A DNA stretch of 22,381 bases, from the IMG/VR virus record IMGVR_UViG_2585427768_000008, positions 1-22,381 of that record, one strand, 5' to 3'. How positions within the stretch are numbered: position 1 is the stretch's first letter; every line of letters starts with the position of its first letter. The notes under the pieces were generated by a model. It worked only from the letters and a program-made list of their open reading frames with translations, was not told where the DNA came from and made no database searches. The stretch is from a virus (lineage: Duplodnaviria > Heunggongvirae > Uroviricota > Caudoviricetes). Both the position numbers and the translations under genes were made by a program. Shown here one piece after another: positions 8,601 to 14,998 of the stretch.

Positions 8601-10484
8601 ATTTTCCGGTGCCTGCGCACGTCCTTTCTGGAAACTCTGGCCCTTCACCTCACCGGTTGTGGTAAAACGACCACCACGTCCGGCCTGATTTTCATCCGGC
8701 GTACGCGCTACTTCTCCTGGTAACGGATATCCCTGTCCGGGATGAATATCGCCGGGAGCGGGAAGGCGTGGACGCTCAGTTAACTCCTGTGCTGTCGGAC
8801 CGGCATCACCTTCAGCCATCTGGGAACGCACCAGTTCTTCCGCCGTCGGCGCGTTGCCACGAGCAAGACGGGCCTGCACTTCTGTATCATCCCCCGTAAA
8901 ACCACGGAATCGCGGGTCACGCATGAACGCGGGCTGTTCCATCGGATCAGCATCAGTAATACGCTCTCCGTCAGCCAGAGTGTTAATGGTCTCCGTTGCC
9001 ACATCTTCAGAGAACGCAGGATTATCCATTTCAACGGCATACTGATTCTCGCCTTTCTTCACTACGGACGGTTTCAGGCCGGTGGCGCTGGCATTGCGGA
9101 AAACGTCGCTCCCCAGAGCACTTTTTTCATCCGTGAAATAACGGTTGTCCGGACGCACCTTTTCAATGCGTTCTGCTGGTCTGGACGCACCACTCTCGTT
9201 AATTTCAATACGAACTTCATCCGGATCGCGGAACCGCACCGTCGGGTAAATACTCCCGTCGCCATCATCCGCATTTTCCGGCTGTGGCTGTGCCTCCGGT
9301 CTGGCCTCCCGCTGAGGGCGAAGCACATCACGTATTGCCTGTAACTGCTGCTCTTCAGTATCAGTACGCCCTTCCTTCTGGCTGAGTTTTCGGTATTCCT
9401 CAAGCAGTTCAGGGCGCGGCTTCGCCTTCAGCTCATCCATCACCGCCTGTCGCTTCGCCTGTTCATCCAGTTCATTCAACAGCTGGCTGGCGGCTTCCCG
9501 GCGATGAACGGCAGACGTGTCTCCCTCATGTGCCATATCCGCATCAGCATACTGTTCCAGAAGCTGCTCGCGATTCATCCCCTGCATAGATTCACGATGC
9601 TGTGCCACCGGATCAACCGGTTCGGGTTGCGGAGCCGATTCGTCCTGAGGAACGCTTTCAGCCTCACGCATGGCTGCTTCATCTGCCGCCTGACGTTTTC
9701 CACGATATCCGGCAGCCGCACCGAATGGTGCCCCCATTGCAGCACCAAGGGCTGCACCTTCGATCGTTGCGTCAGCCACGCCCTCCCACGGTGACACATC
9801 CATTCCGGCGGTCTCACGCAATGCCGTGTTTTCCTGATAGCGTGAATAGCCACCCTGCGCCGCATTAATCGTCCCCTGTTCCGTGGCATTTCTGACAATG
9901 CCGCTTTTAACGGTCTTCGCCGTGCCCCGCATCGCCAGATTAAGCAACTGAGCATCGCCCAGTTTTGCCGCCATGGCATTCACAGCCAGCAATTCAGGAT
10001 CGGTTGCCAGCTGCGCACGCACCTCATCGGCAACACGCTCTTTTGCCAGGTCCATTTTCTGGCGGTCAGTAAGCTGCGCGTGCTGCGGATCTGCATCAAT
10101 TGACAAAAAGGTCTGCTGAAATTTCGGTGACTTCGCCAGCTCAGAATAATCCGCGTTAAGAACAGCATCTGCCGCTGCCATTGCACTCCGCCCTTGCGCA
10201 CTGACAGTGGAATGGGTGATCAGGCCTGCCTGGAAAAAATCCGGCATTTTTTTATCGACAGCTTCGGCTGCCAGTGCTGTGGCTCTTTCCGGCTGCATCC
10301 CTGCCGCGATGTATTTTTTCTCCAGCCCGGCGGTCAGCACTTTTCGCAGAGTGACATCACCCAGCTTTTTAGTCACACCGCCTGCAACCATATCCGGTAC
10401 AAGCGCACCAATCAGGTTAACTCCACAAGCCTTCGCAACTTCAGGGATGCCGACACCTTTAATCGGCTCATCAAGATTTTGCAT
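2631..10484 (-). CDS. giant multidomain protein (about 2617 aa) with zincin-like HExxH motifs; function unknown, possibly polyvalent-protein-like
   Basis: Uninterrupted 7.9-kb ORF on the minus strand. Preferred start is ATG at 10484 (AAGGA 7 nt upstream); the track start at 10517 has no RBS. HEWFH encoded at 7149-7163 and RHEIIHHAMEH at about 6334-6363. No Walker A or methyltransferase motifs seen. GC content visibly higher than the neighbouring AT-rich operon. Confidence 0.9.
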   Translation of the reverse strand: MQNLDEPIKGVGIPEVAKACGVNLIGALVPDMVAGGVTKKLGDVTLRKVLTAGLEKKYIAAGMQPERATALAAEAVDKKMPDFFQAGLITHSTVSAQGRSAMAAADAVLNADYSELAKSPKFQQTFLSIDADPQHAQLTDRQKMDLAKERVADEVRAQLATDPELLAVNAMAAKLGDAQLLNLAMRGTAKTVKSGIVRNATEQGTINAAQGGYSRYQENTALRETAGMDVSPWEGVADATIEGAALGAAMGAPFGAAAGYRGKRQAADEAAMREAESVPQDESAPQPEPVDPVAQHRESMQGMNREQLLEQYADADMAHEGDTSAVHRREAASQLLNELDEQAKRQAVMDELKAKPRPELLEEYRKLSQKEGRTDTEEQQLQAIRDVLRPQREARPEAQPQPENADDGDGSIYPTVRFRDPDEVRIEINESGASRPAERIEKVRPDNRYFTDEKSALGSDVFRNASATGLKPSVVKKGENQYAVEMDNPAFSEDVATETINTLADGERITDADPMEQPAFMRDPRFRGFTGDDTEVQARLARGNAPTAEELVRSQMAEGDAGPTAQELTERPRLPAPGDIHPGQGYPLPGEVARTPDENQAGRGGRFTTTGEVKGQSFQKGRAQAPENAAGRQGEILEGETVRRGLPSPDEQNATAPVREGLPAPESQRGVDMPQPESLPRMVRDSLPELAQQAEARRQTGDNRQTITDVPDTEVPVPVDKPSTHQQARGAKIEDFGEEIKGAAKHRYAQLAEAMGKTLEDGEYATQPLSKLFPKPDYARLEKEGVDSDTLAMMALYRSEIPTRTSRNMQKWISIVKSGREATAGMLEGKIPAAKLADMMDSKPGLRSMSDTWKLLRTLSALQIDKASGYRVRSGVYSFVGGKRYDPPQMMYSLRDSKGRDLFFSESRDELLKKAKAYFDEQGSRERETPATSADDRITFDVYRHKASGDIFIGYGKNRQKLKGGFESARDAHDYVRTHRDELVNQVKALREVSREEQRNATNRDRTGPERRKGDVSPEQFSDAFGFRGVQFGNYVESPRRQADLNRAYDSLHDLADVLNVPTKALSLNGRLGLAFGARGKGKAAAHYEPGEVAINLTKGNGPGALAHEWFHSLDNYFGRYDVSTDGKITSGGDYMTEAQRAGRVFKDGRYVDAEYPVRQEVYDAFKGVMKAINSSDMLRRSERLDGVRSKPYWSTDVEMAARAFERYVQDKARMAGVENDYLVNIRKADDHGQPDTYAYPTNAELDGGIREAFDHLFRTLKTRETDKGVAFYSRKGVTRTPEGNLISDVNRSAEAKGSPVPQVEAVARGVISGIKDSDLKVRVVKSQKEAEALAGESFDGYGKVHAFYRPDKREIVLVADNIPDGRTVREKLRHEIIHHAMEHVVTPAEYQTIIKTVLKTRDSDNATIREAWRKVDASYGKESPEVQAGEFLAHMAEKQPIKFVAAWERVVALVKGVLRRTGLLKPTELNDIRLVRETIRTLGQRVREGYTPREDGADASSQYSRSGKPDPFKVPEGEGERYRDDLARMMKSLRSTDLTVNIGRTPPVLRHLGAPDLPLVISRDTVRKATNGVKHVVPMDVIERLPELMHDPDAIYRSATERNAVVMLLDAVDKNGDPVVSAVHMKAVRSRLEINKVASVYGTENGKKLKSMEMTGLTLYRREKLSRDNLLHRGLQLPKGEHSYRGSVDKILYPEDIRKGPYYSRTSSLTPEETIASRFVRQMQDKFQVLKAVQENIRKTGGKIDDSNNAYMAEELFHGKAENDLNVMKERYVQPLAKLLADYKIAQADLDEYLYARHAPERNVHIAKINPKMPDGGSGMTNAEAAEIMQRVRNSGKQAQYDRLAGIIDDMLARRREIIREAGLEESGVVDAWQKAYRYYVPLKGQDVDGVVSQPRTGKGFTIGGRESKQAMGRASRAQSPSTQAIQDLSESLIRNRKNEVGNAFLKLVQDNPDKDYWQGFTDDRPDTMRVIAERKDQETGETIREVVERPVPMAMMADRYFTTKKDGKTYYIKLHDPRLMRAMKNMGPETSNAVIRTLGKVNRFLATVNTSYNPEFLVSNFIRDVQTAVMNLKAEQGRSDGKLKELDNLSALAVVKDSRSAMSAVYASLRGKTLTGKGAQWQKVWKEFVEDGGKTGWFNMGDLEGQQKEMDRLVSLAKGGWKGQSIGAWHSFLNLVEDANGAVENALRLSAYKHARDAGLSRQQAASLAKNMTVNFNRRGEQGMLMNSLYMFANASIQGTANLVRTLGHLNGDGPLLERLRWKNLNVPQKIVLAAVGAGYLLGSLNRSVAGEDDDGGNWYDKVPSHVKERNLVIMKSMFGGKAGEYWSIPLPYGYNVFFLLGHTAEGVAAGDLTASRAAGNVVGGILGAFSPIGSETSETLSGALLKNAAPTILRPFANLAMNENFMGAQIYQENMPFGTPKPDSQLGRRSTPEAYKAFAFWLNAFSGGSQYRPGAVDITPESLKFWIDYISGGTGRFISKTTDAAVKSLNGIDIPEQQVPFLGKISGEVMPYADQQKMYDRMTEVAQYHAELKSLTGAERTAFIDENNGKLLMNGLMQDTRKRLKDLRKQRDAIYADSSLSLAQQAAMVKSVERDMKVAVDRFNREYNKKVGVD

Positions 10485-11739: not shown

Positions 11740-12201
11740 ATGAGAATACTAGGTGTTAGAGCGGCGCCCAAAGTTACATCTTTTGTTGTATATTGCACTA
11801 ATGAGTCTGCACTCAAATGTGTTGATGTTATTAAAATACCTTCGACCTTAGACACACCAGAAAAATTAAAGTATGTGAGAAATAACATCCTCGACATTCT
11901 TAATTTATATAATGTTGAATTAGCTGCCATACGCGTTACTGAATCAAACTCTGATAATCTTAGCATTGACCGCCTTTATATAGAAGCTGTTATTCAAGAA
12001 GCATTTTCAAGCAGTGATGTAAGAAAATATTACACTATTAGAAAATCTGGCATGAAATCATCATTGAACCTAACAGAGATCGAGTATAAAGAAATATTGA
12101 AGTCACACCGCAATATAAATGGAATCGATAATTCTGGTTTTACAACTGAAACAAATGAAGCTGTTTTGGCTGCTCTATCTGCGGAGGTAAGGGGATGCTA
12201 A
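11740..12201 (+). CDS. hypothetical protein, upstream partner of Ser/Thr kinase
   Basis: 153-aa ORF in a markedly AT-rich segment; AGGA upstream of the ATG; 3' end overlaps the kinase start by 7 nt. No recognisable motifs. Confidence 0.6.
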   Translation: MRILGVRAAPKVTSFVVYCTNESALKCVDVIKIPSTLDTPEKLKYVRNNILDILNLYNVELAAIRVTESNSDNLSIDRLYIEAVIQEAFSSSDVRKYYTIRKSGMKSSLNLTEIEYKEILKSHRNINGIDNSGFTTETNEAVLAALSAEVRGC

Positions 12202-13241
12202 CTCCATACAAAAGAGCTGATGTAGAATTCGAATGGATTAGTGATCTAGAAGAACAGGGTTGTTTTTCAAAAGTATATCTGGCTCATGACAGACACCTAG
12301 CTCATGACTTGGTGATTAAAGAAATAGAAAAAAAAGAAAACACTAACCACGACGACTACTTTAATGAAGCAAGGCTTCTCTATAAACATGCACATCCAAA
12401 TATTGTGCAAGTTCAGTATGCTGCTCAATGTGAGAGCAATATCTATATAGCCATGCCATTTTATCATAATGGTTCGCTAAACCAATTAATGAAAAAAAAT
12501 AATCTTACAAGCAGGGAGATAATACGGTATTCCATTCAATTTTTAAGTGGACTTTATCATATACACTCAAAAGGTCTTATGCATTTTGATATAAAACCTA
12601 ATAACATTATGATATCAAACAGAAATGAGGCCATGCTATCTGACTTTGGATTATCTCAGTTAGTCAATGAGGAATCGAGAGCTGCGCCTGAGTTTGGATA
12701 TCATTTTCATGTGCCACCGGAATATTTTTCTTTATCAACAAATGATTATAATTTCACATATGACATATATCAGGCAGGATTAACCATATATAGAATGTGT
12801 GTTGGACATGATAATTTTGAAAGAGAAAGATCTGCATTTAGCACGATTGAACAACTCAGAGAGTCGATAATTAATGGCTGCTATCCATTAAAAGAGTATC
12901 CTCCCCATATACATAAAAAATTAATAACAATAGTGAACAAATGCATTCATGTAGATCCAAATGAAAGATATCAATCCGTACTAGATGTACTAAACGATCT
13001 CTCAGCTATAAGTGATGGCGTTCTTGACTGGCGTCTACAGATGACGAAACCAACTAACGGCACATGCGAATGGCAAAAAAAGTCTGGGGACGCTATACTG
13101 TCTATAGTTTTTGACGCAGAAAATTCGTCTACTACTGGTTTTCGTTTATACGATGATGGGCGGAAAAGGCGTGCTACGAACTTAACAATATCCTCAGGAT
13201 GTACCCCTACAAAACTGTATAGGTTATTAAAGGATAACTGA
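12195..13241 (+). CDS. eukaryotic-like (Hanks-type) Ser/Thr protein kinase
   Basis: 348-aa ORF with GGAGG 7 nt upstream. Kinase subdomain motifs in order: glycine-rich-like loop EQGCFSKVY, VIK lysine, catalytic loop HFDIKPNN (about 12583-12606), DFG (12642-12650), PPE (APE-like), DIYQAG. AT-rich. Confidence 0.85.
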   Translation: MLTPYKRADVEFEWISDLEEQGCFSKVYLAHDRHLAHDLVIKEIEKKENTNHDDYFNEARLLYKHAHPNIVQVQYAAQCESNIYIAMPFYHNGSLNQLMKKNNLTSREIIRYSIQFLSGLYHIHSKGLMHFDIKPNNIMISNRNEAMLSDFGLSQLVNEESRAAPEFGYHFHVPPEYFSLSTNDYNFTYDIYQAGLTIYRMCVGHDNFERERSAFSTIEQLRESIINGCYPLKEYPPHIHKKLITIVNKCIHVDPNERYQSVLDVLNDLSAISDGVLDWRLQMTKPTNGTCEWQKKSGDAILSIVFDAENSSTTGFRLYDDGRKRRATNLTISSGCTPTKLYRLLKDN

Positions 13242-13243
13242 TC

Positions 13244-13408
13244 ATGAAAAAGCGCGAGGAAGTAAGCAAGCTGCCTCGCAGACGTGATGCAGCATTAGCG
13301 GTTCCCTACAAAAAAGATGAGTTCATAAGCCCTTCTGATGACAAAAAATTTTCAAAGGCGAAAAGTTTTACATCTACATCTCTAAAAGATAAATACTTTA
13401 AAATCTAG
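13244..13408 (+). CDS. small basic protein (54 aa), translationally coupled to kinase
   Basis: ATG at 13244, 2 nt after the kinase stop, with AAGGA upstream; stop TAG 13406-13408 directly precedes the terminator. Not in the supplied ORF track (below its length cutoff); read by hand. Confidence 0.35.
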   Translation: MKKREEVSKLPRRRDAALAVPYKKDEFISPSDDKKFSKAKSFTSTSLKDKYFKI

Positions 13409-13434
13409 CCCGGCCTCAGCGCCGGGTTTTCTTT
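13409..13434 (+). terminator. rho-independent terminator ending the cI/kinase operon (tIMM-like)
   Basis: CCCGGC (13409-13414), 6-nt loop, GCCGGG (13421-13426), followed by TTTTCTTT. Confidence 0.7.
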
Positions 13435-13605
13435 GCCTCACGATCCCCCACCTAAAAAAACATAACTCATTGTATTTATTGATGTAACTCGCTAAACCAT
13501 GCAGTTCTGATCCCTGCCGCATAACCTTCATCAGCCACATTTTCAAAAATAAATTTCCTTATATATCAGAATCATACTTCGTAGAGTTAATAAATCACCA
13601 AAATT

Positions 13606-13650
13606 CGTACCAATAGTTCTTGATAATGTCGAACTATTGGTTCACTATTA
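13606..13650 (+). promoter_or_regulatory. candidate pL-like promoter with inverted-repeat operator
   Basis: 11-bp inverted repeat ACCAATAGTTC (13609-13619) / GAACTATTGGT (13631-13641) with 11-bp spacer containing TTGATA (13620-13625, -35-like); weak -10-like CACTAT at 13643-13648. CGTAC-N5-GTTCT at 13606-13620 resembles elements in the cI switch region. Confidence 0.4.
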
Positions 13651-13717
13651 TCGTCATCAGCAGGACGCATTACTCACCAGGGCGGTGAATATACAACGAT
13701 TCGAATATGAATCTACG

Positions 13718-13732
13718 GCGCTGACAAAGCGC
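13718..13732 (+). promoter_or_regulatory. nutL-like boxB RNA hairpin (P22 type)
   Basis: GCGCT GACAA AGCGC: 5-bp stem with GACAA pentaloop, the boxB form I recall for phage P22. Lies between the pL-like promoter and the N-like gene. No convincing boxA found upstream. Confidence 0.6.
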
Positions 13733-13742
13733 AATAACCAAA

Positions 13743-13885
13743 GTGAACTTTGGGGTGTGGTGAAGGGTTCATGGACGGGAATATGTCGCACGTAAAGCGG
13801 CGAGGCCTGTGGGACTATTGCCGAATTGAAGTAGGCCGAAACAGGTCGAAATGGGTCTCCCACCTACCACACCACCAAAGTTCAT
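13743..13885 (+). other. long-range helix in the N-like gene leader (possible RNase III-type processing or translational control structure)
   Basis: TGAACTTTGG (13744-13753) and GTGTGGT (13755-13761) pair with ACCACAC (13867-13873) and CCAAAGTTCA (13876-13885), about 17 bp with one bulge, enclosing about 105 nt. The helix ends 1 nt before the AGGAGG Shine-Dalgarno (13887-13892). Confidence 0.4.
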
Positions 13886-13897
13886 CAGGAGGTCTAT

Positions 13898-14998
13898 ATG
13901 ACACGCAGAACTCAGTTCAAAGGCAATTCACGTTCTCGTCGTCGTGAGCGTTTAAAGGCAAAGGCATTAGCTAACTGCGTACTGGCCCGCGAAGAAGCAA
14001 TAAGTTCAGAAGTATTACACCGCCCTACTCTAAGCAGAGCGCAGATTCAGGCTAAAGGTACTCACGAAACGCCTGAGCGCATAGAAGACGCTAAGCCAAT
14101 TAAGTTCATGGCACAGGACGTGATCTGGCAACAGAAAGAATACAGACGCAATCTGGAGCGAGCAGCCATTGTGTACGCGAATGAGTTTGGACATAAGCAA
14201 CCAGAAACTGGTGTATGTCTTCCAAACGTAGCCATTTACGCGGCAGGCTACCGGAAATCAAAACAACTGACGGCGAGGGGATTGATGACCACGCCTTCAG
14301 TTTTGCCGCAAAAGTTATGGCGTCCGCTTGCAGAGATTAAAAACTTCGTTGAAAAAATGCCTGATGGAGTTCGCCTTACGGAAGTTACTAAAAAAGTTAA
14401 GACATTTGCCGAACTGTCAGGAAAGGAGAGAAACCAGCTCATAGATTTTATCGATAAACGGGAAAGCATCATTGTATTTAAGGTCAGAAAAGAAGGTTCT
14501 GGTAACGGAGTAACCTTTTTCCGCCACAAAAAATATGGATATCCCAAACGGGAAGGAAACGTCACAATCACTAAGGACCTTCAATCAAAATTATGTACCA
14601 GATGCGGGCAGACAAAATCAGTCAATGATTTTTATTCAGATGCCAGCAAGCGTGACGGGAGAGCCATTTATTGCAAGAAGTGCGAATCTGCAATGAAACG
14701 CTCACGCAGAAAATGCAACAAATTAATTCTGCAACAACAGGAACCTGAAATGAATAACCTCAAAGCAGTTTCACCTTCACCAGAAATACTCAGAAAACAG
14801 GCTGAAGAATTGCTGAAAGCCGCCGAAATTGCGGAGAAAAAACGCCAGGAAGATGATGCATTCAACAAAAAACTTGCGCCCTTAAAACTTGAAATCCTTC
14901 AGGCCGCCGGAAAAATGCAGCTTAAACTGGACGAATTCATCGACTGTATGGATGAAATGAATAAAGCAGTTCAGAAGCTTAAAGAGCTGACCGCCTGA
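13898..14998 (+). CDS. N-like transcription antiterminator with arginine-rich N-terminus, extended by a CxxC...CxxC zinc-ribbon and coiled-coil C-terminal region
   Basis: 366-aa ORF, AGGAGG 5 nt upstream. N-terminus KGNSRSRRRERLKAKALAN resembles the arginine-rich motif of the P22 N protein (recalled as GNAKTRRHERRRKLAIER) and pairs with the P22-type boxB upstream. CTRCGQ...CKKCES motif near residue 250. Much longer than typical N proteins. Confidence 0.6.
   Translation: MTRRTQFKGNSRSRRRERLKAKALANCVLAREEAISSEVLHRPTLSRAQIQAKGTHETPERIEDAKPIKFMAQDVIWQQKEYRRNLERAAIVYANEFGHKQPETGVCLPNVAIYAAGYRKSKQLTARGLMTTPSVLPQKLWRPLAEIKNFVEKMPDGVRLTEVTKKVKTFAELSGKERNQLIDFIDKRESIIVFKVRKEGSGNGVTFFRHKKYGYPKREGNVTITKDLQSKLCTRCGQTKSVNDFYSDASKRDGRAIYCKKCESAMKRSRRKCNKLILQQQEPEMNNLKAVSPSPEILRKQAEELLKAAEIAEKKRQEDDAFNKKLAPLKLEILQAAGKMQLKLDEFIDCMDEMNKAVQKLKELTA

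Follow-up and report, generated by a model that had tools for sequence, protein, structure and literature searches.

Gene organization of the pL-N region

The DNA analysed here, referred to as the window, is a stretch of 22,381 nucleotides from a Caudoviricetes virus (IMG/VR record IMGVR_UViG_2585427768_000008, positions 1 to 22,381), and all coordinates refer to it unless stated otherwise. Sequence comparison found that the segment 13400-14281 is 98.6% identical to positions 9065-9945 of phage 933W (AF125520); many Stx-converting phages and phage HK97 match it as well. In the 933W record, the cI-stk operon closes with terminator tM, after which come the pL region, an annotated nutL and gene N. 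The corresponding features of the window, together with the helix described below, are as follows:

13407-13428, plus strand: intrinsic terminator (tM/Timm), from a terminator scan; tM is annotated at the equivalent 933W position
13609-13641, no strand assigned: perfect 11-bp inverted repeat ACCAATAGTTC/GAACTATTGGT, from a repeat search; it overlaps the pL hexamers
13620-13656, plus strand: candidate pL, with -35 TTGATA at 13620-13625, -10 ACTATT/TATTAT at 13644-13651 and a start near A13656
about 13665-13732, plus strand: nutL, annotated at the matching place in the 933W record (98.6% identity)
13718-13732, plus strand: boxB hairpin GCGCTGACAAAGCGC, with a stem pair probability of about 1.0 and an open loop of 5 nt
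13743-13766, plus strand: 5′ arm of the closing helix (13743-13761, an unpaired GA, and 13764-13766), from folds, RNAalifold consensus and covariation
13767-13862, plus strand: interior of the element (cassette A), with predicted hairpins at 13767-13782, 13785-13801 (loop ACGTAAA), 13804-13847 and 13852-13862
13863-13885, plus strand: 3′ arm of the closing helix, with A13874 bulged, from folds, RNAalifold consensus and covariation
13887-13900, plus strand: Shine-Dalgarno sequence AGGAGG (13887-13892) and N start codon ATG (13898-13900), from the sequence; the 933W N coding sequence starts here
13898-14281, plus strand: N coding region of the 933W/HK97/P22 type, from the ORF list and comparison with relatives that keep the TGA stop codon

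The terminator at 13407-13428 closes the cI-stk operon just upstream of pL. As in 933W, small ORFs and stk (12195-13241), a eukaryote-like serine/threonine kinase gene, lie between cI and this terminator (11740-13408), and stk and the small ORFs are the lysogen-expressed cargo of the immunity operon.

The candidate pL was not called by a consensus promoter scan of the window. The 11-bp inverted repeat at 13609-13641 is probably the operator oL, a role suggested by its position in the sequence relative to pL. The lambda pL transcript opens with the very bases found from 13656 onward (ATCAGCAGGACGCA); the RNA therefore likely starts at 13656, and the leader would be 242 nt long.

Comparison of the N ORF with the Pfam N_peptide family gave a match at residues 2-127 only. 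The stop codon of N has been lost in the window, where GGA is found at 14279-14281 (T to G at 14279) in place of the TGA present at the equivalent position in the relatives ES5, L007, L008, L019 and L236. Therefore, N (127 aa) runs into a downstream hypothetical gene of 237 aa, giving a 366-aa ORF that extends to 14998. The change is a genuine read-through mutation or else an error of sequencing.

A long-range helix between nutL and the N ribosome-binding site

The RNA between nutL and N folds into an element of 143 nt closed by a long-range helix of 19 bp plus 3 bp, which encloses 102-104 nt. The outermost pair is the wobble G13743-U13885, followed inward by pairing of 13744-13753 with 13875-13884; on the inner side of the bulged A13874, 13754-13761 pairs with 13866-13873. 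G13762 and A13763 are unpaired, and 13764-13766 then pairs with 13863-13865 as a 3-bp extension. The 5′ arm contains the boxC-like sequence GGGGTGTGGTG. The helix starts 10 nt past the boxB of nutL, and its 3′ arm ends at 13885.

The original prediction, which was made from the sequence of the window, had placed a 17-bp helix between 13744-13761 and 13867-13885, ending 1 nt before AGGAGG. Its location was essentially right and its spacing from AGGAGG exact, C13886 being the sole base between 13885 and 13887; the 3′ arm was off by one base (13866-13885), and folding confirmed a long helix of the somewhat different size given above. The RNA folding that had been proposed as a check found the helix in minimum free energy (MFE) and centroid structures alike, both for 13735-13905 and for 13660-13930. 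The fold energy was -65.7 kcal/mol compared with -47.6 ± 4.0 kcal/mol for 200 dinucleotide shuffles (z = -4.5), and none of the 200 shuffles was as good.

A partition-function fold of the whole presumed leader (13656-13960) gave 18 helix pairs with a probability of at least 0.95, and boxB folded independently of the long helix. The Shine-Dalgarno sequence of N was mostly unpaired in this predicted ensemble; therefore, any occlusion of it by the helix would be only steric.

Homology with the N leader of phage lambda

The lambda leader, read on the N strand, has the order boxB, GGCTTTGGGGTGTGTG, 90 nt, CACACACCACCAAAGC, AGGAG and the ATG of N. When the lambda leader was folded alone, +81-96 paired with +187-203 with A195 bulged, and an outer CAG/CUG clamp was added. 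The lambda helix thus has 16 bp and a 3-bp clamp, encloses 90 nt, and lies 16 nt past boxB and 7 nt before AGGAG. The two elements have 12 identical nucleotides in the 5′ strand (CTTTGGGGTGTG, lambda +83 to +94) and 13 in the 3′ strand (CACACCACCAAAG, lambda +189 to +201), the bulged A included, and their interiors are unrelated in sequence. Phage CL707, which has lambda immunity, carries the lambda nutL, outer flanks and N around the interior of the window, at 96% identity.

Because the arms are identical over 12 and 13 nt and CL707 combines lambda flanks with the interior of the window, we conclude from the sequence comparison that the helix of the window is homologous to that of lambda, the same element with a different filling. 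The likeness to the RNase III-sensitive hairpin of the lambda N leader is therefore stronger than first claimed, since it had been presented as an analogy. The accompanying statement that the element is larger than that of lambda holds barely and is a minor point (143 nt versus 123 nt for the lambda stem from +81 to +203, or 133 nt with the outer 3-bp clamp; 102 versus 90 nt enclosed).

The RNase III site of the lambda N leader (rIII) and the NUTL-dependent autoregulation of N are reportedly the work of Steege in 1987, Kameyama in 1991 and Wilson in 1997 and 2002. Both systems are of similar size and run in the order pL, nutL boxB, a gap of 10-16 nt, 5′ arm, structured interior (roughly 100 nt), 3′ arm, a gap of 1-7 nt and N Shine-Dalgarno sequence. 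The window differs from lambda in that its 3′ arm is nearer to the Shine-Dalgarno sequence (1 nt versus 7 nt), its helix is a few base pairs longer, and its nutL boxB and N are of the P22/933W type.

Recurrence and covariation of the helix arms

Leaders were gathered from 80 loci upstream of a 933W-type N, 37 upstream of a phi80-type N and 80 upstream of a lambda-type N. Further leaders came from 119 loci anchored on the 933W nutL alone, a set in which the 3′ arm is unbiased, and from five distant N genes of Salmonella P22-like phages, Sakai-type Stx phages and Shigella phage 75/02. The arms were located by an arm-anchored duplex search; the outermost helix taken from 300-nt folds, which included untranscribed DNA, was found to be noise and was dropped.

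The same arrangement was present in the gathered loci wherever N directly follows the nut site, and the helix precedes four N families: the lambda type, the 933W/P22 type, the phi80 type and the Sakai type. Arm duplex energies ranged from -25 to -38 kcal/mol, as against -3 to -15 kcal/mol at phi80-type N loci with another gene in place of the leader. The arms have the core YTTTGG...(purine)CCAAAG, with inner and outer extensions that vary by lineage. The inner stems differ among the types of interior, here called cassettes, yet are complementary in each: GGTGTGGT/ACCACACC in cassette A, GGTGAAT/ATTCACC in B, GCTGGC/GCCAGC in H, GAGTAGCGCG/CGCGTTACTC in J, GATTGGATG/CATCCAATC in K and GATGCGATG/CATCGCATC in L. 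Inner arms paired at 7.6 of 8 positions when cognate and at 4.7 of 8 when non-cognate.

Covariation across related leaders, which the original prediction had proposed to look for, was found. Among 23 distinct arm pairs, double-sided changes occurred in 15 of the 19 pairs of the helix, and none of 500 column shuffles reached the observed covariation. In 15 loci with the lambda cassette, the 5′ arm has T for G and the 3′ arm has the compensating A for C. Standard pairs filled 90.7% of the cells for the 23 distinct arm pairs but only 39-46% when the partner was slid by 1-3 columns, and this slid-register control is the fairest comparison because the arm positions are the best duplex among motif matches and many of the sequences are related. 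The comparison indicates that pairing of the helix is maintained by compensatory changes in many phages and, judged by this conservation and covariation, the helix is far more than a chance inverted repeat. It also offers an explanation for the conserved stretch after nutL (boxC) in lambdoid phages: it would be one strand of a helix whose partner covaries and whose interior is exchanged freely.

Interior cassettes

At least 13 interior cassettes, labelled A-M and T, were found between the arms; the shortest has about 35 nt and the longest about 205 nt. Only cassettes E, J and L share a relationship, the remaining types being mutually unrelated. The closing helix was present in the unconstrained MFE structure of all 13 cassette representatives, all of which were well folded. 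In most cassette types the last interior hairpin adjoins the 3′ strand of the helix, on which it could stack to extend the duplex to about two turns.

Cassettes A and C are found behind both 933W-type and lambda-type N, and A is also found behind phi80-type N; E lies behind phi80-type N, J behind lambda-type N (21 of 75 lambda-type loci) and L behind the N of Salmonella P22-like phages. The bulged purine and the CCA are both absent from types E and J. Behind the 933W-type nutL, cassette A accounted for 92 of the 119 loci, B for 16 intact and 2 truncated copies, and C for 9. The reassortment of unrelated interiors within a covarying stem, seen across four N families, is new as a comparative finding, if modest.

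The interior of the window is cassette A. RNAalifold analysis of 24 distinct copies (94% mean identity) gave four hairpins within the closing helix, with double changes in 9 of 48 pairs, three of these inside the interior (e.g., U-A to C-G at 13808/13843). Since only three interior pairs have double changes, the interior hairpins are predictions. The hairpin at 13852-13862 abuts the 3′ strand of the closing helix, so that it could stack on it.

Among 5426 complete E. coli genomes, 1335 match the leader-plus-N region at least in part. When one genome per species was scanned, cassette A turned up in E. coli only, apart from a 251-bp Xanthomonas pisi contig (L323) that carries it exactly and is most likely contamination by E. 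coli phage DNA. An Rfam search of 13000-14500 with permissive thresholds gave best hits with E of 0.34 or above, far below gathering, and no family was assigned. The small RNAs PreS/LPR1, LPR2 and 6S of lambda, considered as possible N-leader products, map elsewhere.

Three loci showed irregular leaders. L074 (about 1240-1500) has a tandem junction: a cassette C leader, of which the end is present, runs through 12 nt of N from its start, and this is joined to boxB (3′ half only) and a whole cassette A leader, apparently by unequal recombination. In L167 and L205 the leader breaks off in cassette B and unrelated genes follow, N and the 3′ arm being missing; these look like N-deleted prophages that are probably defective.

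Proposed role in the control of N

We consider it probable, at roughly 0.8, that the helix represents the RNase III stem of the lambda N leader in its 933W/HK97-type form, placing nutL beside the ribosome-binding site of N. The element of the window is, on this evidence, a known kind of regulatory RNA that is uncatalogued in Rfam. An earlier description of the stem in 933W-type phages was not found in the accessible literature.

The nut sites of lambda are composed of boxA, boxB and boxC (PMC2724277). The lambda N leader is an RNase III processing site according to PMC5371410, which cites Steege 1987. The lambda literature also describes that N and the Nus factors at NutL repress N translation across the highly structured leader, and that RNase III modulates this NutL-dependent repression (PMC5725501, summarising Wilson 1997 and 2002). 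The mutant rnc70, an RNase III that binds without cutting, affects the regulation of N mRNA (PMC8708148).

On the lambda fold, positions +88/89 and +197/198 lie opposite each other with a two-base stagger, inside the block that is identical in the window. RNase III reportedly cuts the lambda stem at these two positions; a two-base stagger is typical of the enzyme. The G/U-rich 5′ arm presumably corresponds to boxC, which reads GGTGTGTG in lambda.

By extension from lambda, the following course of events may be proposed for the window. The helix would form once the 3′ arm has been transcribed. It would carry boxB and the complex assembled there (N, Nus factors and tethered polymerase) to the ribosome-binding site of N, a few nucleotides from the Shine-Dalgarno sequence, so that N could repress its own translation. 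A stable helix abutting the Shine-Dalgarno sequence may itself hinder binding of the 30S subunit. RNase III would then cut both strands of the helix, by homology at G13753/G13754 and C13876/A13877, a two-strand cleavage that we infer from the identity with the lambda site. Cleavage would strip nutL and the stem from the N message and raise N translation, and the synthesis of N, hence early gene expression, would follow the RNase III activity of the cell. Both the cleavage of the window stem and its effect on N translation are thus an extrapolation from the lambda system. The nutL and N of the window are of the P22/H-19B type, which needs fewer host factors, and for this reason the autoregulatory part of the lambda scheme may fail to apply here.

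Early gene expression in lambdoid prophages, those with Shiga toxin included, is paced by N. Should the lambda circuit hold here, the making of N in 933W-type phages would be tied to host RNase III activity, hence to growth state, and this would bear on prophage induction and toxin output. Current understanding is not overturned; the analysis takes the lambda paradigm into a large family and adds a structure, backed by covariation, for which Rfam has no entry.

Alternative explanations

The helix could matter as structure only, serving as a spacer between nutL and the ribosome-binding site or as a 5′ stabiliser of the N message, and stay uncut by RNase III. Covariation proves pairing, not cleavage, and a fixed recognition sequence is not universal, because cassettes E and J are without the bulged purine and the core CCA. 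However, the 12-13 nt on each strand around the lambda cleavage site are identical in the window, the lambda stem is an established RNase III substrate, and the helix, its 3-bp extension and the stacked hairpin at 13852-13862 would together amount to about two turns, a duplex of RNase III size. We regard this explanation as unlikely and favour the RNase III stem.

A second possibility is that the element is a socket for exchangeable RNAs, from which the interior is excised to act on its own as a tRNA-like RNA, a decoy or a small RNA. It would fit the retention of no fewer than 13 unrelated interiors (35-205 nt), each well folded, and it gains from two kinds of interior that resemble known RNAs. 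The first kind was found in L101 (IMGVR_UViG_3300048919_000059), which has two arm-bounded elements in tandem, at 1093-1183 and 1310-1465, upstream of a phi80-type N. ARAGORN called the element at 1093-1183 as tRNA-Ser(tga), with the conserved helix serving as acceptor stem and the bulged A as discriminator base; the CCA is the start of CCAAAG, and the T arm is CTGGTTCGATTCCAG. The neighbouring element at 1310-1465 has a perfect T arm, GCTGGTTCGACTCCAGC, and a D-like arm. The second kind is the interior of cassette H in L102, of which 1378-1424 matches positions 237-283 of the bacterial SSU (16S) rRNA model with 37 bits (E = 1.2e-7); L102 is a single metagenomic contig, and both the capture of an rRNA fragment and an assembly chimera are therefore possible.

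Against excision of a functional interior stands cassette A of the window itself. ARAGORN gave no tRNA call on the window, even at 80% thresholds, and when all cassette representatives were run with lowered thresholds only the L101 cassette (T) was called. Cassette A failed all tRNA tests that were run, with no tRNA or tmRNA call and no Rfam hit. The tRNA-like cassettes come from one metagenomic contig only, T-arm motifs beside the 3′ arm were seen in L101 only among the loci examined, and types E and J are without CCA. These three results (the negative outcome for cassette A, the T arms confined to L101 and the missing CCA of E and J) speak against a tRNA-like or released RNA as a general property of the cassettes, and excision of a functional interior appears distinctly unlikely for this element. 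The broader proposal that the stem is a universal socket of lambdoid N leaders for swapped RNAs of about 60-250 nt, excised by RNase III and having functions of their own ('RNA morons'), is in our view improbable; if it were true, cassette A would be an uncharacterised, widespread prophage RNA.

The arms could also be recombination linkers that act at the DNA level as mosaic boundaries, with RNA pairing incidental. Interiors A and C do occur with different nutL and N types, different interiors occur with the same nutL and N, and the breakpoints lie in or at the arms; recombination there probably spreads the cassettes. Linkers, however, predict conservation of sequence, whereas the inner 8-9 bp vary from cassette to cassette with complementarity preserved in every case. 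Where copies of one cassette differ at a single base, the partner base has changed too, e.g., G-C to U-A in the lambda-type locus L259, and 15 of the 19 pairs have double changes. Since the pairs compensate and the slid-register control bears this out, the arms are not linkers only, and incidental pairing is very improbable.

That the region encodes a small protein can practically be dismissed: open frames of 65, 68 and 38 codons exist (plus-strand ORF 13750-13947 and antisense ORFs 13657-13863 and 13769-13885), but the plus-strand ORF, which the original prediction had already thought non-coding, has a TTG start without a Shine-Dalgarno sequence, crosses the N start out of frame, has mostly substitutions that alter the amino acid, and is rejected as coding because its frame contains stop codons in eight related versions (phi80, PA2, CL707, L097, L103, L111, L150 and L178), and the antisense ORFs sit opposite a leader with a base-pairing pattern of conservation.

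Comparison with other RNA systems

The leader-trailer helix of the rrn operons resembles the element of the window in that a nut-like boxB/boxA is closely followed by a G/U-rich boxC, which supplies the 5′ strand of the long-range helix around a large structured RNA; the sequences differ (UCUGUGUGGG in rrn versus GGGGUGUGGUG in the window). The rrn helix is cut by RNase III, which releases pre-16S rRNA, and its counterpart in the window is a predicted substrate. The rrn antitermination complex probably keeps hold of boxC until the partner strand has emerged (PMC10250234, PMC8632103). The two differ in that the rrn helix encloses 1.5 kb of rRNA as against about 100 nt, and serves ribosome assembly rather than translation control of a downstream gene.

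In lambda cIII and E. coli adhE, RNase III acts on a structure of the 5′ leader and raises translation initiation (PMC5371410). Unlike the element described here, these are local structures at the ribosome-binding site, with no nut site and no long-range closing helix.

The C4 RNA of phages P1 and P7 is a phage tRNA-like precursor cut by RNase P. The L101 element at 1093-1183 is like it in having an acceptor stem, a T arm and ACCA, whereas cassette A of the window failed the tRNA tests that were run, and its CCA, which is missing in E and J, is base-paired. A match to a catalogued small RNA was found near one of the other leaders: in L091, about 1 kb downstream of a phi80-type N, positions 2727-2824 on the minus strand match the Rfam family isrB, an Hfq-binding sRNA, with 38.2 bits against a gathering threshold of 35 bits.
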